Positions 1 through 11,018 of a stretch of 11,018 bases of DNA are shown here, one piece after another. The notes under the pieces are model-generated. The model made no database searches, had not been told where the DNA came from, and saw only the letters and a program-made list of their open reading frames with translations. Position numbers and translations under genes: made by a program. The first letter of the stretch is position 1. Each line of letters starts with the position of its first letter. Source of the stretch: an uncultured bacterium (lineage in GTDB: Bacteria > SAR324 > NAC60-12); the NCBI GenBank assembly GCA_964010765.1, contig CAXGMD010000089.1:1-11018 (forward strand), written 5' to 3'.

Positions 1-370
1 CTGATTTGGGTAACTTTAGTACGGTCCGAGGCCCTTCCATCACATTCTGCAATACTGTCATATGGGGAAAAAGGTTGAAATGCTGGAAGACCATGCCAAT
101 TTTTGCACGGATCGGAATTAAGTCTCTTTCCTGATACAGTACCTGCCCGTTCTGTCGACTACCAATTAGCTCACCCCTTAAGCGGACCTCCCCAGAACTG
201 GGAATCTCCAAGAAATTCAAGCAGCGCAACAATGTAGACTTGCCAGAACCAGAAGCTCCAATAATAGCTAGACTCTCACCTTTATTGATTTGCAGATCAA
301 TCCCTCGAAGCACATGGTTCTCACCAAAATGCTTCTTCAAATTGCGACAGGACAGGATCTCTAGACTCAT
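1..370 (-). CDS. Polar amino acid ABC transporter ATP-binding protein (GlnQ/HisP family), 5' part only, truncated by the window edge
   Basis: Not in the ORF track. Manual translation from ATG (cat at 368-370) gives MSLEILSCRNLKKHFGENHVLRGIDLQINKGESLAIIGASGSGKSTLLRCLNFLEIPSSGEV...IGMVFQHFNLFPHMTVLQNVMEGP, with Walker A GASGSGKS and the family Q-loop GMVFQHFNLFPH. Open to position 1; starts 1 nt after the permease stop. Confidence 0.95.
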   Translation of the reverse strand, partial: MSLEILSCRNLKKHFGENHVLRGIDLQINKGESLAIIGASGSGKSTLLRCLNFLEIPSSGEVRLRGELIGSRQNGQVLYQERDLIPIRAKIGMVFQHFNLFPHMTVLQNVMEGPRTVLKLPKS

Positions 371-371
371 T

Positions 372-1031
372 TTACTTACGGAATCGATTTTCAAGGTGAT
401 AGACTAGGAACGCAAATGGAGAGATCACTACAAAAAAGATAAGCGCAACAACAGTATACGACTCAATGGGATTGAAGTGATAGGTGGAGATAGCCTTTGC
501 TTGGTGCATCAACTCCCCAAAAGCGATCACCGATGCCAATGAGGTCATCTTCATCAACTCCACAACTCGATTCATGAAAGCCGGAATCATCCGTACCACT
601 GCCTGAGGCAGAATAATTCGCCAGACTTGCTCACGATAAGTCATACCCAGGGCTTTGCCAGCTTCCCACTGACCTCGATGAATGGACTGAATTCCCCCTC
701 GGAAGATTTCTGCACAGAAAGCTGTGGTGTTCAAACCCAATCCCAGCGCTGCTGCTGCGAACGCATCAATATCAAATGGCGAGATGATTGGGAAAGCAAA
801 GTAGAACCACATGATCTGGACGAGTGCCGGGGTATTGCGAAAGATTTCCACAAAGACACTCGCCGGAAAGTTGACCCAGCGATTATGGGAATAACGTCCC
901 AATCCAACAAAAAAACCAAAAAATAGGCCAGTTATCAGAGTAAGTAGACCCAGCTTCAACGTATTGAGTAAGCCCTGTGATAGCAGTGGCCAACTAGCAA
1001 ATACGGTCTGGAAGTCCCAAACATGATCCAT
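372..1031 (-). CDS. Polar amino acid ABC transporter permease (HisM/GlnP family)
   Basis: 219 aa hydrophobic protein with GLLNTL, EIFRNTP, the EAA loop AEIFRGGIQSIHRGQWEAGKALGM and ILPQA..RMIP / MKMTSLASVI motifs. Its start overlaps the upstream stop (TGATG). Confidence 0.95.
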   Translation of the reverse strand: MDHVWDFQTVFASWPLLSQGLLNTLKLGLLTLITGLFFGFFVGLGRYSHNRWVNFPASVFVEIFRNTPALVQIMWFYFAFPIISPFDIDAFAAAALGLGLNTTAFCAEIFRGGIQSIHRGQWEAGKALGMTYREQVWRIILPQAVVRMIPAFMNRVVELMKMTSLASVIAFGELMHQAKAISTYHFNPIESYTVVALIFFVVISPFAFLVYHLENRFRK

Positions 1032-1711
1032 CAGTGCACTGTGCCTTCGCCAGTCTTGCCCAGCTGACGCTCAATGTGCTTGACCAGCAGAGAGGTGGGA
1101 AACAAAACAATGAAATAGAGTCCGGCCGCCACTGTGAAGACCTCTAATGGTCGATAGGTTGACTGAGCAATGTTATTCGCCTGATAAAGGAGATCTGCAT
1201 AAGATACCGTGGCAACCAACGTCGTAGTCTTCATCAATTCAATCACACGTTCCAAAAACGCAGGGATCATACGTTTGACTGCCTGGGGGAGAATGATTCT
1301 GCGCATCGACTCCAGATAGCTCATTCCGATAGCCCGGGCTGCTTCCCACTGTCCACTTTCAATGGAAACAATTCCACCACGGAACACTTCAGCAAAAAAA
1401 GCAGAGGATTGAATTGAGAAGGTCACCAAAGAAGCTCGAAAGGGATCCATCTCAATACCGGAGAGCATCGGCAAGGCAAAGAAAAACCAAAACAACTGAA
1501 CGATCGGTGGTGTGGTTCGAAAGAACTCAATCAGTACCCCCACAGAGACCCTGAGCCACTTGTATGTACTCAACCGAAGAATTGCTGCAAGCAGACCGAG
1601 TGGAATCCCAAATAGAAGTGCCCCACCGGTGATCTTCAATGTGTTCAGCAGACCTGCTAGTAACAGATCCAACTGGTTGAAAACTACTCCAAACTCCCAA
1701 ACATAGTCCAT
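1031..1711 (-). CDS. Polar amino acid ABC transporter permease (HisM/GlnP family)
   Basis: GLLNTL, EFFRTTP, EAA loop AEVFRGGIVSIESGQWEAARAIGM, ILPQAVKRMIP. Start placed at ATG 1711 rather than GTG 1720 because MDYVWEF aligns with MDHVWDF of the paralogue and AGGTG lies 6 nt upstream. Confidence 0.93.
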   Translation of the reverse strand: MDYVWEFGVVFNQLDLLLAGLLNTLKITGGALLFGIPLGLLAAILRLSTYKWLRVSVGVLIEFFRTTPPIVQLFWFFFALPMLSGIEMDPFRASLVTFSIQSSAFFAEVFRGGIVSIESGQWEAARAIGMSYLESMRRIILPQAVKRMIPAFLERVIELMKTTTLVATVSYADLLYQANNIAQSTYRPLEVFTVAAGLYFIVLFPTSLLVKHIERQLGKTGEGTVH

Positions 1712-1953
1712 CAACAACACCTAAGATCAACAGATAAAGCTTCCCAAGAATGTGCTCACTTTAGAAAGTGAACTTCGCACAGCAGCCGGCAGATCGCAAC
1801 CAGAAAGCTTCAACAAGGCCTGCCACTTTTACTAGGGAAAATCCCTACGAGAAGCGGCATACTCAATCCTATTAATTAAAAAATATCAATAGTTTCGTTT
1901 GTTAACATGAGGAGTACCTGCTTCTTTCAGGAAGAAAATAAATTAACTTGAAA

Positions 1954-2122: not shown

Positions 2123-2818
2123 ATGGAATCAGAGAGAACGTCAGAGGTAGTAGCAGATTCACTGATTAAGGAGATCAAAGGAAACTACCTCGCGATTGGT
2201 GCGACCCTCCCAACAGAGCGGGAACTTTGTGATCGTTTTAGTGCGTCTCGTCCCACCATTCGGGAAGCTCTGCGTATCATGGAATTCAAGGGATACCTAC
2301 GACAAGCTTCCAATAAACGCCCTGTCGCTGAAAAACCGACCATTCAGAAAATTCTGAAGTACACCGCCGAAAACTTGAAAGAGATTCTTGATGATACCGA
2401 CAGCCAAGCCTACCTGGAGCAAATGCGCCAATTCATTGAGGTGGGAGCCCTACGAACTGTTATTGAAAGTTCCTCCGAGGTGAACCTGGCTCGCATTCAT
2501 AAGGCCCTGGTTGAGTGCCATCATGCAATTGGTAATCAGAAGACTTTTGCAGAAGCCGATATTGCGTTTCACCGAGCGATTGTCAAAGTGGTGGACAATC
2601 CCATCATGCTGAACCTACACGATATGTTCATTCGTAATTTATTATTCAGCCGACCGCCTGTCAGTAACCAGAATGAACACGACACAATGGTTTATCAGGA
2701 GCACAAAAGCATTTATGAAGCGATCCTCAGGAAAGACGCAGAGGCCGCAATGGTGGTTATGAACCAGCATCTCCATCGTTCCTATAAAATCCGACTTCAA
2801 GTTCCATCGGTTGAATAA
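2123..2818 (+). CDS. GntR family, FadR subfamily transcriptional regulator (wHTH + FCD domain)
   Basis: N-terminal LPTERELCDRFSASRPTIREALRIMEFKGYL wHTH; C-terminal ADIAFHRAIV..DNP and EHKSIYEAILRKDAEAA..M.QHL typical of the FCD domain. Start codon uncertain (see findings). Confidence 0.95.
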   Translation: MESERTSEVVADSLIKEIKGNYLAIGATLPTERELCDRFSASRPTIREALRIMEFKGYLRQASNKRPVAEKPTIQKILKYTAENLKEILDDTDSQAYLEQMRQFIEVGALRTVIESSSEVNLARIHKALVECHHAIGNQKTFAEADIAFHRAIVKVVDNPIMLNLHDMFIRNLLFSRPPVSNQNEHDTMVYQEHKSIYEAILRKDAEAAMVVMNQHLHRSYKIRLQVPSVE

Positions 2819-2820
2819 GG

Positions 2821-3576
2821 ATGAGGGCTATTTCTGAAGAGCAAATCGAGTCATTCAAAGCAGATGGGTATCTTCACTTACCTCGCTATTTGGAAGAATC
2901 AGCGCTCGACGCTACCAAGCAGGCGCTCAAGAAGGTGATGGATAAGATCAACACCTTTCGCAGTGAAGAAATCTATTATGAGGACAAGGCAGACCCAACC
3001 TCACTGAAGCAAATCCAGCATCTGGAAAACAAGGAAGAGTTCTTTCAGCAATTGATTTCCGTAGGAACAGTCTATGAGCTAGCCCAAGAGCTTCTCCAAG
3101 AAGAGCCGATTCCAAAAAATATTCAGTATTTCAACAAACCACCAAAGCACAGTTCGGCCACTCCTGCACATCAAGATGGCTATTATTTCATGCTCAACCC
3201 TTGTCGGGCTCTGACCATGTGGCTGGCTCTGGAGGAAGTAGATGAATCAAATGGCTGTATCAGTTATGTGAGGTCATCTCACCGGCTTGGAGTGAGGAAG
3301 CATCAGCGTACCAAAACCTTGGGATTCAGCCAGGGAATTGCTGACTTCCCCAGTCCTGAAGACCAAGCCCAACTAGTGAAAATCAAAGCTCAACCGGGCG
3401 ATTTACTAGTACACGACGCCATGACGATTCATTCAGCGGACAAGAATCGGTCTACCCGTACCAGGAAAGCCATCGGATTCATCTACTACGCAGCGAGTGC
3501 GAAAGTGGATGAGGTAGCCCATGCTGCCTATCAACAACAACTCGCCAATGACCTCCGCGAGGAGAACAAGATCTGA
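2821..3576 (+). CDS. Phytanoyl-CoA dioxygenase (PhyH) family Fe(II)/2-oxoglutarate-dependent oxygenase, copy 1
   Basis: FKADGYL start, FNKPP, TPAHQD (HxD), LTMWLALEEVDESNGC, SH, PGDLLVH..TIHSADKNRS (distal His), RKA (2OG-binding Arg). Confidence 0.92.
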   Translation: MRAISEEQIESFKADGYLHLPRYLEESALDATKQALKKVMDKINTFRSEEIYYEDKADPTSLKQIQHLENKEEFFQQLISVGTVYELAQELLQEEPIPKNIQYFNKPPKHSSATPAHQDGYYFMLNPCRALTMWLALEEVDESNGCISYVRSSHRLGVRKHQRTKTLGFSQGIADFPSPEDQAQLVKIKAQPGDLLVHDAMTIHSADKNRSTRTRKAIGFIYYAASAKVDEVAHAAYQQQLANDLREENKI

Positions 3577-3634: not shown

Positions 3635-4417
3635 ATGAGAAAAAGCAAAACTCTCGCGAAGTGGAAGAATCAACAGCCTGCCAAATTTTGTGCACTGCAG
3701 CACTACGTGCCTTCATTCTTGAAACATGCTGCCGTTTTTGGCTATGACTGCATCTGGCTAGATCTGGAGCACCGTGCTTTCGATGATCGTGAGGTGCAGT
3801 CACTACTTACCATGAGCCATTTGCATGATATTGATGTGATGGTGCGACCCAGCACGCTGGAGAAAAGTAAGTTGTACCGCTATCTGGAGGATGGGGCCGC
3901 AGGGCTAATGATTCCCCACGTTTCTGACGCAGAAAAAGCGCAAAATCTGGTCAATGCTGTAAAATTCCCCCCACTGGGTGATCGTGGGATTGATGGAGCC
4001 GGCTTGGACTGTGGATTCATGGTAGATTTTCATGAACAAGAAAATTTCGACTATACCAATCTGGTCAACCAAGAGACTTTTTTAGTGGTTCAGATTGAAA
4101 CTCCAGCTGCAGTCGAAAACATCGATACGATCGCTTCTGTCAAGGGTGTGGATGCTCTCTTCATCGGTATTGGAGATCTGGGTCTACGCTACAAACACAT
4201 GGAGAATCCGAACACCCTGGACGAAGTTGACATCATCATCAGTAAGGCTGCAAAAAAATATGGTATCCATTGGGGTCGTCCTATCCGTAACGAAGAAGAC
4301 GCCAAGAGAGCTCTGGCGTTAGGTTGCCAGATCTTCCCATTTGCTGGAGATTTTGAACTGATCATGGACGGGCTGCGTAGTCGAGCAAAGCAACTTGGTC
4401 AGATTTTTGGTGAGTAG
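3635..4417 (+). CDS. HpcH/HpaI-family class II pyruvate aldolase (GarL/RhmA-like)
   Basis: GYDCIWLDLEH, MVRP (catalytic Arg), GLMIPHV, KFPPLGDRG, VVQIET (metal-binding Glu), GVDALFIGIGDL (metal-binding Asp). Confidence 0.92.
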   Translation: MRKSKTLAKWKNQQPAKFCALQHYVPSFLKHAAVFGYDCIWLDLEHRAFDDREVQSLLTMSHLHDIDVMVRPSTLEKSKLYRYLEDGAAGLMIPHVSDAEKAQNLVNAVKFPPLGDRGIDGAGLDCGFMVDFHEQENFDYTNLVNQETFLVVQIETPAAVENIDTIASVKGVDALFIGIGDLGLRYKHMENPNTLDEVDIIISKAAKKYGIHWGRPIRNEEDAKRALALGCQIFPFAGDFELIMDGLRSRAKQLGQIFGE

Positions 4418-4511: not shown

Positions 4512-5381
4512 ATGACCCAACTCATCATTGGTACAGCCCAATTCGGTATGAACTACGGTATTGCCAATTCAACAGGTCAACCAAGTGAGAAAACAATTAG
4601 AGAAATCATTGAATGTGCAACAACAAATGAAATTCTCTACTATGATACAGCGATTTCTTATGGGAGTAGTGAAGAAGTCTTAGGAAAGATTTTTGGTGAG
4701 TTGGGAATTCATCAGCAAGTTAAGGTCTTTACCAAAATTCCAAAACGAACAAAAACAGATTCACAAGCATCAATTGATGATTCTGTAAAAAAATCAATTA
4801 ACAGGCTAAAAACAGATCATTTATTTGGCCTTCTACTACACAATGAATCAGATTATTTGTATTTGGAAGAATTGAGAAAAATCAAAGAAGCAGGTCTTTG
4901 CAAGCACATTGGGTTATCCACTGGACATGATCCTTCATTCAATAGTGAAATCTTGAAAAACGAGAATTTAGGGTTGCTTCAAATACCAGCGAATCTTTTG
5001 GATCGTAGAAATCTTGTTCCAAATATTCTGGATAACACTGCAGAAAAGCAAATCATTGTTCGGAGCATTTATCTACAGGGACTATTTTCAATTATGCCGC
5101 AGGTTCTCTCTGTATTTCATAGACCGTTGAGATCCTTACTTGAGCAACTCAATCAGATTGCTCAAAATTTTGGAATGGGTATTCATGAATTAGCCCTGCG
5201 ATATATTCTATCTTACTTACCAAGTTATGTCGTTCTTGGTGCGGAATCACTCCTGCAGTTTCAGAACAATTTAGCTTGGTTCAAGCGAGGTCCCTTAGAT
5301 AGAGATATACTAAAAAGAATCAACGCAGTCTCATACGATTTGGATTTTCAGCTAATCACCCCACATCTGTGGCCCAAGTGA
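4512..5381 (+). CDS. Aldo/keto reductase
   Basis: IGTAQFGMNYG, YYDTAISYGSSE (Asp/Tyr), VFTK (Lys), LLLH (His) tetrad; HIGLS, LQIPANLLD, RSIYLQG, LALRYILS, VVLG. Confidence 0.92.
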   Translation: MTQLIIGTAQFGMNYGIANSTGQPSEKTIREIIECATTNEILYYDTAISYGSSEEVLGKIFGELGIHQQVKVFTKIPKRTKTDSQASIDDSVKKSINRLKTDHLFGLLLHNESDYLYLEELRKIKEAGLCKHIGLSTGHDPSFNSEILKNENLGLLQIPANLLDRRNLVPNILDNTAEKQIIVRSIYLQGLFSIMPQVLSVFHRPLRSLLEQLNQIAQNFGMGIHELALRYILSYLPSYVVLGAESLLQFQNNLAWFKRGPLDRDILKRINAVSYDLDFQLITPHLWPK

Positions 5382-5388
5382 GAGCACT

Positions 5389-6162
5389 ATGAGTTTAGAT
5401 ATTGCTCAACTCAAAGAATCATTTCAACAAAACGGTTATGTTGTCGTTCCAAATTTTTTGGACACTAATGAACTAAAAACTGTGCAAATAAACCTTGAAA
5501 GGCTGATCGAAATCACTCATCAAAAACGTAATTATGAGCATGCGTTTTATGCCAACAAGCATGACAAAAGCTCGCTGAAGCAACTCCATCGCATTGAAGA
5601 AGATGATTTTTTCAAAAGCTATTCAACCAACTCGAAGTGGAGTTCCTTAGCTAGTACTTTACTAAATGAGAAAGTTGAACCTGCATTGGCGTTGGAGTGG
5701 TTCAACAAACCACCCAATTATTTTCACGAGACACCACCTCATCAGGATAATTTTTATTTTTGTTTTGAGCCTCCTCAGGCACTCACAATCTGGTTGGCCC
5801 TAGACCATGCAGACCAACGGACCGGATGCTTGCACTTCATTCCAGGCTCTCATTTACAGGGTATCCGACCCCATCGGCTCTCGAACAATCTAGGATTCTC
5901 CCAAACGATTGTGGATTTCACCGAAAAAGATCAACGAACTGGAGTTGCCATCACTGCAAATCCTGGAGATGCCGTTATTCATCACGCAGAGACGATCCAT
6001 TGGGCCGGCAGTAACCAAACCACAGACCGAAACCGAGCTGCTCTAGCGATGGTGTTTAAATCCAGCACTTGTCAGCGCAATCAGCAAAGATTTGAGGCCT
6101 ATCAACAAAGTGCAAAACCATTCATTCAACAAGAGCTTCGTTTGGCAGAGGTTGTTGAATGA
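5389..6162 (+). CDS. PhyH family Fe(II)/2-oxoglutarate-dependent oxygenase, copy 2
   Basis: FQQNGYVVVPNFL, FNKPP, TPPHQD, LTIWLALDHAD..TGCLHFIPGSH, PGDAVIHH.ETIHWAGSNQT, RAA. Confidence 0.92.
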   Translation: MSLDIAQLKESFQQNGYVVVPNFLDTNELKTVQINLERLIEITHQKRNYEHAFYANKHDKSSLKQLHRIEEDDFFKSYSTNSKWSSLASTLLNEKVEPALALEWFNKPPNYFHETPPHQDNFYFCFEPPQALTIWLALDHADQRTGCLHFIPGSHLQGIRPHRLSNNLGFSQTIVDFTEKDQRTGVAITANPGDAVIHHAETIHWAGSNQTTDRNRAALAMVFKSSTCQRNQQRFEAYQQSAKPFIQQELRLAEVVE

Positions 6163-6968
6163 GCAGCATCCAAAATGGAAGCAAAACCATCCAACAATTG
6201 TTTGATCTCACCGATACCGTGAGCTTGGTGACTGGTGCCTGTGGCCACTTGGGGAAAGCTCTTGCGCAGGGCTTGGCCGAAGCTGGTTCGAGTGTGGTGG
6301 TCAGTAGTCGTGAGGAGGATAAAGCTGTTCAATTTGCTCAGCAATTGCCAAGACCAGTGCAGCAGACTCACTTGGGAATTCAGTTGGATCAATTGGATGA
6401 GACTTCCCGTCAGGCTGGGGTTCAAAGAGTTCAAGCAGAATACGGAAGGATTGATACGTTGATCAACAACGGTCACTTCCCACTTTCTGCCGACCTGAAT
6501 TCAGTCACAGAAGAAGAATTCAAGGTTCAATTGTCCAATGCTTCAGCCTACTTTTTCCTGGCAAAGGCTATCTGTGATTTGGCGGTTGCCCAACAACGGC
6601 AGGCTTCGATCATTATGCTGGGTTCCATGTATGGTTCCGTGGGGTCGTATCCTGATGCGTATGAGGGTGTTTCTCCAGCTAGTCCTGTGGCCTATCACAC
6701 CTTGAAAGGAGGCATTCTGCAGATGACGCGACACTTGGCAGTCTATTGGGCTTCCAAGGGAGTTCGGGTCAACAGTCTGAGCCCTGGTCCATTTCCAGCT
6801 CCCAGTGCTCCCAGGGGGATGGTGCAGCGCCTTGAAAAGAAAAGCCCAATGAAACGTATGGGTAAACCAGATGAATTGAAAGGAGCTGTTGTGTTTCTGG
6901 CTAGTCAAGCCAGCAGTTACATGACCGGACAAAATCTTGTCATCGATGGAGGCTGGACCGCATGGTAG
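6159..6968 (+). CDS. Short-chain dehydrogenase/reductase (SDR)
   Basis: LVTGACGHLG Rossmann motif, GRIDTLINN, GSMYG (Ser), YHTLK (YxxxK), GVRVNSLSPG, PMKRMG.PDEL, SYMTGQNLVIDGGWTAW. ATGA overlap with the upstream gene. Confidence 0.95.
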   Translation: MSSIQNGSKTIQQLFDLTDTVSLVTGACGHLGKALAQGLAEAGSSVVVSSREEDKAVQFAQQLPRPVQQTHLGIQLDQLDETSRQAGVQRVQAEYGRIDTLINNGHFPLSADLNSVTEEEFKVQLSNASAYFFLAKAICDLAVAQQRQASIIMLGSMYGSVGSYPDAYEGVSPASPVAYHTLKGGILQMTRHLAVYWASKGVRVNSLSPGPFPAPSAPRGMVQRLEKKSPMKRMGKPDELKGAVVFLASQASSYMTGQNLVIDGGWTAW

Positions 6969-9289
6969 CGCTTTCTACAGCACAACATCAGCTATTGGAT
7001 CCGAGTCAACATGTATTCACTGCCACAGACCAGCAGGTTGTGCAGACACTCTCTGATTTTTTGCCGAATCGCATCATTGATATCCACACGCACTTGTACA
7101 GCCTGACTGATTCACAAAAAACACCCACAACCGTCGAAGCAGATGGCGTGACGCTTCGCTCAACCATGAGTCATTGGCTGGAGCAGCGAGTAGAGCAGTA
7201 CCTTTCTTTTCCATTTCCGCTGAAAGACCTGCCTTTTGCTGCAGCCAATGAACACATTTTTCAGGAATCGCATAAGCACGATTTTGTTCATGGATTGATG
7301 ATCATTAGACCAACTGATGATCCAGATCAAGTACGTGAAACTGTACAGCAGCATTCCTTCCGTGGCTTCAAGTGCTACCACCACTACGCCTCTCGCAGCG
7401 ATACCTTTGATGCAGACATCGAAGAGTTCCTACCTGACTGGGCCTGGGAGATCGCTGATCAACAGAATCTGATCATCATGCTGCACCTGGTGAAAGCGCA
7501 GGCGCTGAGTGATCCAAACAACCTGAGCTACTTACACGATCGGCTATCTCGCTTCAAGAATGCCAAATTGGTTCTGGCTCACTGTGCCCGGGGATTTGCT
7601 GCCAAGAATACAATAGAGGGACTGAACGCAGTACGACAGTTTGAGAACGTCTTTTTTGATAGCTCTGCGGTCTGTGAACCAACCTCCATGGAAGCGATCA
7701 TCCGCGCAACCGGCATCACTCGGCTGATGTACGGCTCGGATTATCCTGTTTCCCAAATGCGAGGAAAAGCTATCAGCCTCGCCAATGGCTTCAGGTGGTT
7801 GAACCAAAATTCGTCAACTGGTCAGGATTCTTCTTTTGGAGAATTCACGCTGGTGGGCATTGAGTCCTTGCTAGCAATGCAGGTTGCCGCGCAGCTATGC
7901 TCGCTAAAAGATTCCGATCTAGAATATATCTTTTACAAAAATGCCTCCCACCTGTTAGGTTTAGGCGCGTCCTATGAGAGCAAACACAACCTGGAGCAAT
8001 ATGAATTGGCAAAAACTATGATTCCTGGAGGTACTCAACTGCTCAGCAAAAAACCTGAGTTGATGGCACCCAGCTACTGGCCTGCCTACTACACCCAGGC
8101 AACAGGTTGTGAGATAATTGATGAGAGTGGAAACCGTTTTCTTGACATGGCTTCCAACGCGGTGCTCTCCTGCCTACTTGGATACGCTGATGCTGATGTG
8201 AACAACGCTGTGCTACGCCGAGTTCAATTGGGTTCCATGTCTTCCTTGTCCAACTATGATGAAGTTCGGTTGGCAGAGCGCCTGCTGGAGATTCATCCTT
8301 GGGCTCAAATGGTCCGCTATGCTCGAACTGGTGGGGAAGCAATGACAATGGCTGTACGGATTGCCCGGGCTGTCACAGGTCGAGACAAGGTGGCGATTTG
8401 CGGCTACCACGGTTGGCATGACTGGTATCTAGCCGTCAATTTGGAGGATGGTCCGAATGGCTTACAAGACCATCTGCTGCCTGGATTGGATCCACTGGGA
8501 GTCCCTGCCGGTTTGAAAGGCACAGCGCTCCCGTTTCGTTACAACCAGCTAGCCGAACTAGAAGAAATCTTCGCTCATCACCAATTGGCTGCGGTTGTGA
8601 TGGAAACGACTCGCGGAGTTGAACCTGAAAACCAATTCCTAGAAAAAGTCCGCCAGTTAGCCACACAACATGGAACCAAGCTGATTTTTGACGAGATTTC
8701 GATCGGCTGGCGGCTTTGCTTGGGAGGGGCTCATCTGAAATACCACGTAACACCTGATCTTGCGGTGTTTGCCAAGGCCTTGAGCAACGGCTATCCCATG
8801 GGCGCAGTGATTGGACAAACCGCTGAGATGAAATTTTTTGAGCGTACCTTCATCTCCAGCGCCTATTGGTCTGAATCTATTGGGCCTACTGCCGCACTGG
8901 CTGCTGTGGAAAAGATGATGAGCTTGGATGTGCCAGCACACCTGCAACGGATTGGTGGATGCTTCATGAAACGCTGGTTGGAGCTGGGACAGTCCTGCCA
9001 GCTACCAACTTTTTTCAAGGGACGCCCAGAGTTGGTGCAACTTGGCTTTGAGCATGAACAGGCCAACCGCATCATGACCCTGTTCACTCGCTTGATGCTG
9101 CAGCAGGGGATCATGGCTGGATCTAGTTTCAATCCTACCTTTGCCCATCAAGATCGACACCTAGATCACTACTTTGAGAAAGCAGAAATCTGCTTTGACC
9201 AAATCAATCAGCAGTTGAAGTCAGGGCAGTTTTATAATCAGGATGCGTTCGAAACCAAGCAAACGGGTTTTGCCCGATTGGTCAATTGA
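6962..9289 (+). CDS. Fusion protein: amidohydrolase_2-type TIM-barrel domain (aa ~35-334) + class III PLP-dependent aminotransferase (GSA aminomutase-like, aa ~340-775)
   Basis: N-half: IIDIHTH (HxH), GFKCY, IMLH, LVLAH, FFDSS, LMYGSDYP, IFYKNA..LLG. C-half: IPGGTQLLSK, DESGNRFLD, LLGYAD, RTGGEAM, CGYHGWHDW, LIFDEI (D577), VFAKALSNGYP (PLP Lys605). GGAGG at 6948-6952; 7-nt overlap with the SDR. Confidence 0.9.
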   Translation: MVALSTAQHQLLDPSQHVFTATDQQVVQTLSDFLPNRIIDIHTHLYSLTDSQKTPTTVEADGVTLRSTMSHWLEQRVEQYLSFPFPLKDLPFAAANEHIFQESHKHDFVHGLMIIRPTDDPDQVRETVQQHSFRGFKCYHHYASRSDTFDADIEEFLPDWAWEIADQQNLIIMLHLVKAQALSDPNNLSYLHDRLSRFKNAKLVLAHCARGFAAKNTIEGLNAVRQFENVFFDSSAVCEPTSMEAIIRATGITRLMYGSDYPVSQMRGKAISLANGFRWLNQNSSTGQDSSFGEFTLVGIESLLAMQVAAQLCSLKDSDLEYIFYKNASHLLGLGASYESKHNLEQYELAKTMIPGGTQLLSKKPELMAPSYWPAYYTQATGCEIIDESGNRFLDMASNAVLSCLLGYADADVNNAVLRRVQLGSMSSLSNYDEVRLAERLLEIHPWAQMVRYARTGGEAMTMAVRIARAVTGRDKVAICGYHGWHDWYLAVNLEDGPNGLQDHLLPGLDPLGVPAGLKGTALPFRYNQLAELEEIFAHHQLAAVVMETTRGVEPENQFLEKVRQLATQHGTKLIFDEISIGWRLCLGGAHLKYHVTPDLAVFAKALSNGYPMGAVIGQTAEMKFFERTFISSAYWSESIGPTAALAAVEKMMSLDVPAHLQRIGGCFMKRWLELGQSCQLPTFFKGRPELVQLGFEHEQANRIMTLFTRLMLQQGIMAGSSFNPTFAHQDRHLDHYFEKAEICFDQINQQLKSGQFYNQDAFETKQTGFARLVN

Positions 9290-9385
9290 TAGACCTCCAA
9301 TCAACAACGCAACGAAAAGGAGTTGCCTATGAAGCATTGATTTCTTGATGATTTTTTTACTGTTAATTTTCAAGCGAGGTAACCG

Positions 9386-10999
9386 ATGAAAATCCGATTT
9401 CTTCTACCACTCGTCGTCACGCTTTGTTTTGCTACTCAGCTATTGGCGATGCCCAAGAACAGCAATCCACTCTCAGACTCACGGGTCCGTCAAGCGATTG
9501 CCTATGCGATTGACATGGACACCATTCAGGAGACCTTGCTCGAAGGCAAGGCCATCGTTGCAGATAGCCACATCCCGAACGGCCCCTTCAAAAAGCCTGG
9601 TCTACCCAAGTATTCCTATGATCCGGACAAGGCGCGCCAGTTGCTGAAAGAAGCCAACTGGAATTCGAGCCAGGAACTCGACATGGTCTACTACTACAGT
9701 GATCAGTTAACAGTCGACTTGATGACCGCTATTCAAGCCTATCTGAGTGATGTCGGTGTCAAGATGAACTTCCGTAAACTGGAAGGAGACGTTGGTGCCC
9801 AGCTTTGGACTGCACCAAAGGATCCGCAGAATGGCCCCTCTGCCGTGAAGTGGGATCTAGCCTATGGAGCCCATGGACCACTGGCACTACAAGAGTATTT
9901 CAGCCGTTACAAGACCGGAGATATGTCCATCTCACCAGCAGATGCCAAGGTAGACAGCATGATTGATGTGCTGACCAGTACCGCAGACATCGCTGCTCAA
10001 AAAAAGATCTTCTTCGAGATGGAAGATTACATGCAGACGGAACTCTTCACGCTTCCTCTCTACTATCAGCAAGCTTTCATCTATGAGAGCAATAAGCTGA
10101 ATCGCAACGGTGGAATCTACGGCAATCCACAGTACAACTATGATTGGGATGTCACCAAATGGACCGTAGAGCCCGACGCCAACGGCAAAATGGTGATGAA
10201 CACCAATACTGGCCCAATGGAATTTTTTGAGCATCCCTGGTTCAATCCAGGCCTGTTCATCACGAACAAGGTGCTGTTTGATCGGCTAATCAGCTGCGAT
10301 GGTGGATTGGCACCAACCCGGCCAAAAATGGCCAAGTACTACAACCTGAGCAAAGACGCCAAGACTCTGACATTTGAGCTGAAGAATGGCCTCCAGTGGC
10401 ACGATGGTTCAGCAATCACTGCTGAAGAGATCAAGTGGAACATTGAGTTGGCTCTCAAAGTCCCCAACATCATGCCGATCTTCAAGACAACTTTCAGTTA
10501 TCTGGAAGGTGCAGAAGCTTTCATGAATGGCTCTGCATCCAGCGTTTCCGGAATCGCTATCAGTGGCAACAAGATCACCTTGTCTTTTGCTCAAGTGGAT
10601 CCAAATGTTCTACTGACTTTCACTCAGTGGGCTCCTTTGCCGCGCAAGTATCTAGAAGATGTTGATCCTGCCAAGTTCCAGCAGCACCCTTTCTGGCAAA
10701 ACCCCGTAGGCTCTGGTCCCTACAAAGTCCAGGAAGTCAAAATGAACGACTACCTGATCATGGTTCCATTTGAGAACTTCCACGAAGGTGTTGCCCGTAT
10801 TGATGAGATCGTCGCCTATCCCAGCAAGGATAACGATGCTAATCTCGTCAAGAACGCCTCGGCCGGATCCCTTGACTATGGGTTCACCAAGAACGTGGCT
10901 GACGTCAAAGCCTTGGAAGAGATGGACCACATGCGTGTCATTCCGGCAGACATCCCGTATACACGGATGGTCTGGTTCAACAAGTACGCGAAAAACTAA
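9386..10999 (+). CDS. ABC transporter substrate-binding protein, family 5 (DppA/OppA-like), apparently circularly permuted
   Basis: GAGGT RBS; Sec-type signal peptide MKIRFLLPLVVTLCFATQLLA; PLSDSRVRQAIAYAID, YDPDKARQLLKEA, LFDRL, SKDAKTLTFELKNGLQWHDGSAITAEEI, PVGSGPYKV. All are family-5 motifs but in swapped order. TAA at 10997-10999. Confidence 0.9.
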   Translation: MKIRFLLPLVVTLCFATQLLAMPKNSNPLSDSRVRQAIAYAIDMDTIQETLLEGKAIVADSHIPNGPFKKPGLPKYSYDPDKARQLLKEANWNSSQELDMVYYYSDQLTVDLMTAIQAYLSDVGVKMNFRKLEGDVGAQLWTAPKDPQNGPSAVKWDLAYGAHGPLALQEYFSRYKTGDMSISPADAKVDSMIDVLTSTADIAAQKKIFFEMEDYMQTELFTLPLYYQQAFIYESNKLNRNGGIYGNPQYNYDWDVTKWTVEPDANGKMVMNTNTGPMEFFEHPWFNPGLFITNKVLFDRLISCDGGLAPTRPKMAKYYNLSKDAKTLTFELKNGLQWHDGSAITAEEIKWNIELALKVPNIMPIFKTTFSYLEGAEAFMNGSASSVSGIAISGNKITLSFAQVDPNVLLTFTQWAPLPRKYLEDVDPAKFQQHPFWQNPVGSGPYKVQEVKMNDYLIMVPFENFHEGVARIDEIVAYPSKDNDANLVKNASAGSLDYGFTKNVADVKALEEMDHMRVIPADIPYTRMVWFNKYAKN

Positions 11000-11018
11000 G
11001 CCTCTCAACCAACCCAAC

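Follow-up and report, generated by a model that had tools for sequence, protein, structure and literature searches.

A conserved, hinge-cut circular permutant of the family-5 solute-binding protein fold in SAR324 and other bacteria

Family-5 binding proteins are among the commonest components of bacterial transporters, and they are classified, modeled and annotated on the assumption that their chains run in a single order. What, then, should be made of a gene whose product carries the two halves of this fold in the reverse order? Such a gene occupies the end of contig C89, which is 11,018 bp long, is one of 266 contigs in a draft genome of an uncultured SAR324 bacterium, and constitutes the entire window analyzed here. 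The initial annotation of this window proposed that the gene encodes a natural and clean circular permutant, cut near the hinge between the two lobes of the protein. This proposal is supported by profile, model, homologue and contig evidence, and the open reading frame (ORF), its coordinates and the positions given for the EPDANGK, WHDG and PVGSGPYKV motifs (Table 1) all proved to be exact. We conclude that the protein is a circular permutant of the family-5 fold, cut at the hinge, conserved and widespread, and that it is a variant rather than something categorically new. That the permuted protein is real seems to us virtually beyond doubt. It is also quite likely that it is a genuine, functional, naturally permuted binding protein of cluster C (DppA/OppA/NikA-type), with the role, ligand and origin proposed below.

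The exchange of the two halves is apparent when the protein is compared with sequence profiles. The whole protein matches the Pfam profile SBP_bac_5 (PF00496) significantly, with 199.9 bits against a cut-off of 32.4, which places it in the family, and it does so in two stretches. As predicted by the initial annotation, these two matches are non-collinear. Specifically, residues 1-268 scanned alone match profile positions 201-328 of 368 (aligned residues 17-138; 96.9 bits, E 1.8e-27), and residues 269-537 scanned alone match profile positions 3-208 (aligned residues 312-533; 110.2 bits, E 1.6e-31). Because each half reaches such a value by itself, chance is excluded as the source of the swapped match. 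The order 201-328 followed by 3-208 departs from that of the profile, which begins with lobe I and implies two hinge crossovers, and this departure makes the protein a variant; the collinear order is a habit of the SBP_bac_5 family and not part of its definition. The same pairing of opposite halves is observed with sequences of solved structures: residues 294-476 and 21-133 pair with residues 40-219 and 275-386 of 8upi (81.6 bits), residues 292-532 and 30-261 with residues 34-253 and 260-496 of 8efz, and residues 25-100 with residues 272-348 of Escherichia coli DppA (1dpe). Matches in NCBIfam show the same non-collinear pattern as those in Pfam, and that collection yielded no specific family for the permuted protein, its best match being Opp4A with 155.5 bits against a cut-off of 650.

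Relatives of canonical order reveal the anatomy of the rearrangement. Two clostridial proteins, L018 from a metagenome-assembled genome (MAG) of a Sarcina sp. and L019 from a Clostridium sp., show 44% and 47% identity with the window protein, and in a common alignment (A1) they align with both of its halves; as had been surmised, nothing has been lost or duplicated. Half A spans residues 22-261 of the window protein and 307-543 of L019, and half B spans residues 262-537 and 32-302, respectively. The C-terminus and the mature N-terminus of the window protein flank one and the same loop of L018 and L019, which follows the final strand of their first half and precedes the helix with which their second half begins. 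Correspondingly, the canonical C-terminus ends just before the linker of the window protein, and the canonical mature N-terminus, past the lipobox and tether, starts just after it. The segments are thus the same, the old termini are joined, and the new termini lie at a single site, which is what defines a circular permutant. The clostridial clade of canonical lipoproteins (L018, L019 and P0290-P0393, from Clostridium sp. SGI.024, C. septicum, C. beijerinckii, Sarcina and Hungatella hathewayi) resembles the window protein in its 44-47% identity over both halves and in being encoded by the first gene of a five-gene transporter operon, which in Sarcina lies within a nan-type cluster. It differs from the window protein in its canonical order, its lipoprotein tether and its intact hinge loop. 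All 120 listed relatives of L019, including proteins from Clostridium septicum, Clostridium beijerinckii, Clostridium carnis, Hungatella hathewayi and others, are canonical.

Structure models agree with the sequence comparisons. An AlphaFold2 model of the window protein, built on 40 homologues of the same order, reaches a mean predicted local distance difference test score (pLDDT) of 90.9 and a predicted template modeling score (pTM) of 0.85, and it indicates that both lobes of the bilobed family-5 fold are present. The 48 rows that Foldseek listed for this model are all family-5 chains (233-307 columns, TMq 0.31-0.38). In all 50 rows listed by VIA, one half of the chain alone is covered (194-259 residues, Z 18.8-21.6), with model residues 24-249 placed on the C-terminal half of the matched chain or residues 239/260-527 on its N-terminal half. 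Among the PDB chains listed by the two programs, none aligns across both halves of the permuted model. For example, residues 260-526 superpose on residues 1-241 of Campylobacter jejuni NikZ (4oet; Z 21.6, root-mean-square deviation (rmsd) 2.7, 237 aligned), residues 24-247 on residues 275-492 of 7kz8 (Z 21.4, rmsd 2.4, 196 aligned), and residues 25-247 on residues 300-523 of DppA (8z1z_F; Z 20.8 in VIA). Thus, at Z about 21, either half of the model fits the opposite half of family-5 proteins of known structure, and Pfam, PDB sequence and structure comparisons all bear out the claim that the halves are swapped. A control model of the canonical sister L019 (pLDDT 79.6) aligns end to end with the same chains in 50 of 50 VIA rows (443-482 residues, Z 27.3-30.6). 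Likewise, at the sequence level, 31 of 34 rows that pair L019 with these PDB chains consist of one collinear stretch, and the remaining three (1uqw, 1xoc and 6tfq) list no separately significant stretch. Because the canonical control aligns end to end, the half-coverage of the permuted model reflects chain order, not the orientation of the lobes.

The permuted order is not a peculiarity of one genome. Among the best 120 of 1580 significant homologues, which are 56-99% identical to the window protein, a script that places the two halves found the permuted order in every case, in line with the expectation that homologues of the same order would exist, and 119 of them cover at least 95% of the query in one local alignment. 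Their hosts include SAR324, Neomarinimicrobiota, KSB3/Vecturithrix, Spirochaeta isovalerica, Devosiaceae, Paradevosia, Maritalea, Marinovum, Granulosicoccus, Rhizobiales and others, the near relatives being MAGs labeled SAR324 or 'Deltaproteobacteria'. The order is found on contigs of up to 5.4 Mb, and the finished chromosome of Devosia rhodophyticola carries a permuted homologue. In the main permuted group the linker is conserved with the consensus xPDxxGK. The signal-peptide region is variable, with a lipobox in its place in some homologues, and in the model of the window protein it forms an isolated helix (residues 6-20, pLDDT 45-52). Six near orthologues retain intact frames of 537 codons, and the ratio of nonsynonymous to synonymous substitution rates (dN/dS) lies between 0.019 and 0.044 in all six orthologue pairs and is low in both halves, with the synonymous rate saturated for the two most distant pairs. 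On a wider scale, the 150 best representatives clustered at 50% identity from 1.84 billion proteins comprise 12 permuted, 111 canonical and 27 partial sequences; 5 of the 110 that have at least 480 amino acids are permuted.

How would such a chain be threaded through the fold? The cut maps to about mature residues 262-271 of DppA, which, given the domain boundaries of DppA, would be the first hinge segment between the lobes. Once the signal peptide had been cleaved off, the chain would start at this canonical hinge loop, traverse lobe II and the stretch leading back into lobe I, cross the 7-residue linker in which the ancestral C- and N-termini are fused, and finish through lobe I on the opposite side of that hinge loop, with the fold kept. 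The lobes would then be connected by one chain passage rather than two, and both termini would lie at the hinge. Two points temper this picture: no solved structure has the permuted order, and the placement of the termini side by side at the hinge, with one inter-lobe crossover instead of two, is inferred from the alignments combined with the topology of DppA.

Canonical members of cluster C/PF00496 (DppA 1DPP/1DPE/8Z1Z, NikZ 4OET, Listeria monocytogenes CtaP 5ISU, Mesorhizobium 8UPI, OppA and NikA) possess the same fold elements as the permuted protein, whose halves each superpose on them with Z 19-21.6 and rmsd 2.2-3.4 Å. The permuted protein shares with them the Pfam family, the DppBCDF-type operon and, presumably, the Venus-flytrap mechanism. 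Unlike them, it has its second half first, free termini in place of one hinge connection, old termini fused by the linker, and, probably, a sugar acid as its ligand. Among transporter binding proteins, the closest earlier case of natural permutation is TpMglB-2 (Tp0684) of Treponema pallidum, described as the founder of the circularly permuted sugar-binding proteins termed 'Type Ic / Cluster Bc' (PMC4990184). According to that text, its permutation is also natural and common to a family of homologues, and TpMglB-2 retains ligand binding. However, TpMglB-2 is described there as a cluster B (MglB-like) protein in which about 70-100 residues of one lobe have moved, adding a fourth hinge crossover, whereas the permutation described here appears to remove one. 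No description of a permuted family-5 protein was found in the literature covered, which mostly excludes subscription journals.

The history of the permutation was examined with trees for which the proteins were rotated into one order by script. In a 46-row tree obtained by careful search under a site-heterogeneous model, with more distant canonical representatives as the outgroup, the canonical Lachnospiraceae protein P0127 is basal and a clade of canonical clostridial proteins (support 100/100) branches next. All 26 permuted rows fall in one clade (90/87), which also includes the canonical protein P0126. One origin of the permuted order from a canonical ancestor is most likely. This ancestor would be shared with the clostridial sister clade, and the simplest route to the new order would be a tandem duplication after which the outer halves were lost. 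Because no duplicated intermediate was seen, we offer duplication and trimming as the textbook route and not as a finding. A search for longer proteins that might represent intermediates of 1.5 or 2 times the normal length gave 2 matches among 7996 candidates scored, both with unrelated architectures, which is weak evidence that such forms are absent and counts, if anything, against this route. The two long proteins among the 150 best representatives (919 and 929 residues) are canonical with an N-terminal extension.

A different history, in which the order changed more than once within the clade, either by permutation followed by reversion in the P0126 lineage or by two permutations at the same loop, deserves serious consideration, although we judge it to fall somewhat short of an even chance. 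P0126, a metagenome protein of 557 residues, is a lipoprotein of canonical order. It sits within a nine-row subset whose other eight members are permuted (99/97), and it is closer in sequence to a permuted protein (46% identity to L033) than to its best canonical match (44%). For the 46-row set, none of 200 bootstrap trees can be reconciled with only one change of order, and the approximately unbiased (AU) test rejects a single clade of all permuted rows with p 0.032; the same hypothesis on an earlier 41-row set gave p 0.0225. The linker is also about 3 residues shorter in a group from gut metagenomes (P0125, P0130, L031 and L032) than in the main permuted group. Nevertheless, P0126 is a singleton cluster on a branch of length 1.24, the p values are marginal, and the AU test shares the long-branch pull of the model. 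When P0126 is left out, the permuted rows form one clade (92 in the Shimodaira-Hasegawa-like approximate likelihood ratio test, quick tree). Trees computed half by half are weakly supported and mutually inconsistent (4 and 2 changes), and they were not used for conclusions. P0126 is a candidate for either a reversion of the permutation or a long-branch artefact; beyond the single origin that we favor, the trees hint at, but do not establish, a second change of order in the form of a reversion. Two independent origins, as suggested by early 65-row and 41-row trees, were abandoned as the leading reading when the groups merged after the addition of five metagenome sequences and the removal of P0126. 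Among 400 sampled Clostridia genomes, with three candidates scored per genome, relatives of the gut-metagenome permuted group at E <= 1e-60 were found in one, namely the centre genome itself.

The role of the protein is indicated by its operon. The gene stops 19 nt short of the contig end, and it is the first of a dppBCDF-type operon that continues on contig C130, where positions 92-1048 hold dppB, encoding a DppB-like permease 99% identical to that of L009. At L009, whose binding protein is 99% identical to that of the window, the binding-protein gene precedes those for two BPD_transp_1 permeases and two ABC_tran plus oligo_HPY ATPases, with genes for an RraA-like aldolase and an Amidohydro_2 protein further downstream. 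The five-gene transporter layout recurs in L016, L017, L018, L019, L031-L033 and L035. Both the export signal and the linkage to DppBCDF/OppBCDF-type genes that mark the family are thus present, the former recognized by eye and as the low-pLDDT helix, the latter in L009 and C130. It is highly likely that the permuted protein is the receptor of the adjacent importer. It would be exported to the periplasm and close on its ligand as other Venus-flytrap binding proteins do, and the structure of the operon suggests that the ligand would be handed to the DppBCDF-type permeases and ATPases encoded downstream.

If so, which ligand does this importer carry? Neighboring genes were examined at 11 permuted loci, leaving out L010-L012, L014 and L015 as near-copies of the window or short. 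A gene of the dihydrodipicolinate synthase (DHDPS) family whose best NCBIfam match is N-acetylneuraminate lyase (NanA) adjoins the transporter in 8 of these 11. Four of the eight reach or exceed the curated cut-off of 281 bits (L016, 307.5; L028, 298.3; L033, 291.9; L035, 346.8) and four score below it (L017, 258.9; L020, 261.9; L031, 243.3; L032, 225.5). Further genes of this kind encode NanE in L031 and L013 (in the latter downstream, with 272 bits against a cut-off of 189), a ROK kinase in L033, YhcH in L032, and an N-acylglucosamine 2-epimerase (AGE) in L016, L028 and L033, the last two scoring 385-386 bits, below the cut-off of 600. Because NanA-like genes adjoin 8 of the 11 permuted loci and a canonical sister locus as well, a ligand of the sialic-acid type is predicted. 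For the family, the neighboring genes indicate that the ligand is probably N-acetylneuraminic acid (Neu5Ac) or a related nonulosonic or keto-deoxy sugar acid; for the window protein itself, we consider a sialic-acid type ligand an even proposition.

The canonical sister locus, L018:8241-20201, encodes an RpiR regulator, the binding protein, four transporter components, a NanA-like protein (271.7 bits), two AXE1 esterases, NanE and a ROK kinase. This clostridial, L018-type family-5 transporter may itself be an unrecognized sialic-acid transporter, and it is not named in the available text of PMC8461474 and PMC10017367. The initial annotation had linked the permutation to a possible non-peptide ligand. 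The ligand part of this suggestion gains support from the nan-type neighborhoods, but the non-peptide ligand is not due to the permutation, because the sister clade of canonical order sits in the same kind of cluster.

To our knowledge, SatA is the sole characterized family-5 binder of sialic acid. SatA of Haemophilus ducreyi (5Z99/5ZA4/5YYB) is the binding protein of the ST3 sialic-acid transporter SatABCD of the ATP-binding cassette (ABC) type, and ST3 is described as actinobacterial and Pasteurellaceae (PMC8461474, PMC10017367). SatA-type proteins bind Neu5Ac through a conserved His-Ser pair and an Arg, according to PMC10017367. As is proposed here for the permuted family, SatA serves, as a family-5 binding protein, a sialic-acid importer whose genes lie in nan clusters; unlike the window protein, it has the canonical order. 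The hosts of the clade described here (Clostridia, SAR324, Alphaproteobacteria, spirochaetes and KSB3) are not mentioned for ST3 in the available text of either source (PMC8461474, PMC10017367). SatA chains are absent from the PDB matches of the canonical sister at E <= 1e-10, and their folds superpose on its model like those of any family-5 chain (Z 27.4-28.1).

Several observations weigh against the assignment of a sialic-acid ligand. Of the nine NanA-like neighbors, counting canonical L018 with the permuted loci, five fall below the curated cut-off. The match of the window protein to SatA (5z99/5yyb/5za4) is weak, at 33.6-33.7 bits and E 1.9e-7 over query residues 25-91 only. Canonical L019 has no nan gene in the flank that was read. 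The permuted loci without a NanA-like lyase are the window with L009, L013 and L034: in L013 the DHDPS-family gene is divergent (best match dapA, 53.7 bits), and in L034 the flank holds a transposase and unnamed ORFs and provides no context. Finally, the operon of the window, like that of L009, has HpcH-type and RraA-like aldolases, two PhyH proteins, an amidohydrolase-aminotransferase fusion and a second amidohydrolase. Because its own operon has these other aldolases and no NanA-like gene, the substrate of the window protein may differ from Neu5Ac.

It is accordingly possible, though our estimate lies clearly below even, that in this SAR324 genus the ligand is another amino or keto sugar acid, such as a different nonulosonic acid or a modified derivative, which would be degraded by the PhyH dioxygenases, the HpcH and RraA-type aldolases, the reductases and the fusion protein of the cluster. 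Besides the gene content just described, including an HpcH-type aldolase where L013 has its divergent DHDPS gene, the NanE gene downstream in L013 is in keeping with such a ligand. Genes for HpcH, SDR, RraA-like and class-III aminotransferase proteins also recur beside the Devosia copies, there together with a NanA-like gene. On the other hand, identity between the window protein and the copies in genus g9 (L016 and L028) amounts to 67-68%; these copies lie between a nanA scoring above the cut-off and an AGE gene, and at such a level of identity the ligand is often the same. Nor could any enzyme of the window's cluster be assigned a specific name.

More remote from the sugar-acid reading that we prefer is the proposal that the protein is an ordinary binder of di- or oligopeptides of a Dpp/Opp system with an odd chain order, and that its nan-type neighbors are coincidental. 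Relatives bear the name 'peptide/nickel transport system substrate-binding protein', its permease and ATPase partners belong to the Opp/Dpp type and include oligo_HPY domains, and 8upi, the best match among PDB sequences, is a peptide-transporter protein with aminoserine bound. However, NanA-like genes recur at 8 of the 11 permuted loci examined and at a sister locus of canonical order, accompanied by NanE, ROK, YhcH or AGE genes, the regulators are of the sugar-acid types GntR/FCD, AraC or RpiR, and the cluster of the window has no peptidase gene. In E. coli DppA, residues R383 and D436 clamp the termini of the peptide, as stated in PMC12136057. The column of R383 holds Tyr in 19 of 21 permuted rows and that of D436 a gap in 21 of 21, although both columns are uncertain because the alignment to DppA is of only about 20% identity. 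On balance, a peptide ligand appears unlikely.

The window was also compared with public read sets. The stretch is present in 19 of 23 listed runs, of which 13 are DNA runs from 7 studies, carrying a flag as possible sources, and 6 are RNA libraries from 6 studies. In all four runs examined, one of DNA and three of RNA libraries from as many studies, contigs span the linker without joints or indels, which agrees with the earlier argument against mis-assembly. The gene is covered in all three RNA runs, but such contigs prove neither transcription, strand nor level, and this is to be set against any reading of them as expression data. The suspicion of an assembly or gene-calling artefact, whether through chimerism near nt 10170 or through the merging of two partial genes, which a draft of 266 contigs and a gene ending so close to a contig end might arouse, has a negligible probability and is ruled out by 120 permuted homologues from independent assemblies including a finished Devosia chromosome, by six intact frames with dN/dS of 0.02-0.04, by the bridging contigs, and by a contig end that is a plain overlap with C130.

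Within the phylum of the window, 10 of 88 genomes (6 of 35 high-quality ones) contain a match at E <= 1e-100, and only 2 of 43 genera are represented. Such uneven occurrence agrees with an operon that is accessory and transferable. A gene for a DDE transposase (L034:260-1612) lies about 1.3 kb upstream of the permuted gene on a metagenome contig, an arrangement compatible with a mobile operon. In Devosia algicola (NZ_CP118246.1, L020:9965-11619) the permuted gene is broken, with 17 stops if read straight through; its fragments, ORFs 9965-10402 and 10597-11619, each match SBP_bac_5, and the neighboring transporter, NanA-like and catabolic genes look intact. This copy is probably a recent pseudogene.

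Table 1. Features of the window and of the permuted binding-protein gene (aa, amino acids; nt, nucleotides)
Feature	Position	Strand	Details and basis
GntR/FCD regulator	2123-2818	+	Pfam
PhyH dioxygenase	2821-3576	+	Pfam
HpcH/HpaI-type aldolase	3635-4417	+	Pfam
Aldo/keto reductase	4512-5381	+	Pfam
Second PhyH	5389-6162	+	Pfam
SDR	6159-6968	+	Pfam
Amidohydro_2 and class-III aminotransferase fusion	6962-9289	+	Pfam
Shine-Dalgarno-like GAGG	9376-9379	+	6 nt upstream of ATG; read directly from the sequence
Binding-protein ORF	9386-10999	+	537 aa
Signal peptide, Sec type	9386-9448	+	aa 1-21; cleavage presumably past LLA; by eye (basic n-region, hydrophobic core)
Canonical second half (lobe II, then C-terminal segment back to lobe I)	9449-10168	+	aa 22-261; Pfam, PDB, model superposition
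Linker EPDANGK, joining ancestral C-terminus to ancestral mature N-terminus	10169-10189	+	aa 262-268; alignment A1
Canonical first half (lobe I and extra domain), ending at severed hinge loop	10190-10996	+	aa 269-537; Pfam, PDB, model superposition
WHDG motif			starts at aa 338
PVGSGPYKV motif			starts at aa 440
Stop codon TAA	10997-10999	+
Final 55 nt of contig	10964-11018	.	identical to first 55 nt of contig C130 (exact suffix-prefix overlap)

The genes that precede the binding protein, from the GntR/FCD regulator to the fusion gene (Table 1), share its strand, are tightly spaced and are conserved in L009 and L013, from which we infer that they form one presumed catabolic cluster with it. 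NCBIfam provides weak names for these genes, none of them specific. The fusion protein, of 775 residues, combines an Amidohydro_2 domain (residues 104-334) with a class-III aminotransferase domain (residues 374-740), is conserved in L009 and L013, and has a weak NCBIfam match resembling glutamate-1-semialdehyde aminomutase (205.9 bits, cut-off 486). One of the two PhyH paralogues faintly matches methylphosphonate hydroxylase (43.7 bits, cut-off 500). The aldolase of the window is of class II, as is that of L009, and at the same position an 89%-identical relative (L013:3855-4760) carries the divergent DHDPS-family gene of class I, which looks like a non-orthologous replacement.

At the opposite end of the window (positions 2-1720, minus strand), three ORFs resemble, by eye, the ATPase and two permeases of an ABC transporter of the polar-amino-acid type, and in L009 an SBP_bac_3 gene is found past the far end of the cluster. 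In two gut-metagenome loci (L031:6121-7866 and L032:3924-5717), a fumarate-reductase-like flavoprotein gene (FAD_binding_2 and Succ_DH_flav_C) lies beside a GntR regulator gene, divergent from the permuted operon.

These results should be of interest to specialists in protein topology and in transport alike. One hinge strand appears to be cut throughout a widespread, conserved subfamily, and therefore the Venus-flytrap mechanism would need no double-stranded hinge. Engineered permutations are already in use in biosensor design, and permuted proteins with a canonical sister of about 45% identity in the same gene context offer matched natural pairs for studies of dynamics and for such design. 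With 'peptide/nickel' labels and split domain matches, the likely role of these proteins is invisible in current annotation. In ecological terms, that role is likely to be the uptake of sialic-acid-like sugar acids by the abundant SAR324 of the deep ocean and by other marine bacteria. Eight families of sialic-acid transporters have been recognized so far, according to PMC8461474, and if the ligand prediction holds, one more would stand beside them.

A bolder synthesis, which we regard as speculative and, taken as a whole, rather doubtful, is that this clade comprises unrecognized ABC importers of sialic and nonulosonic acids in marine SAR324, Devosiaceae, spirochaetes and gut Clostridia, whose binding protein underwent a rotation of its chain at the hinge that one or more lineages later undid. 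If true, then the family-5 fold would work with either one or two hinge strands and would have switched naturally between them. Orthologues of both orders, sharing a ligand, would in that case constitute a natural experiment on how hinge topology bears on the dynamics of opening and closing.

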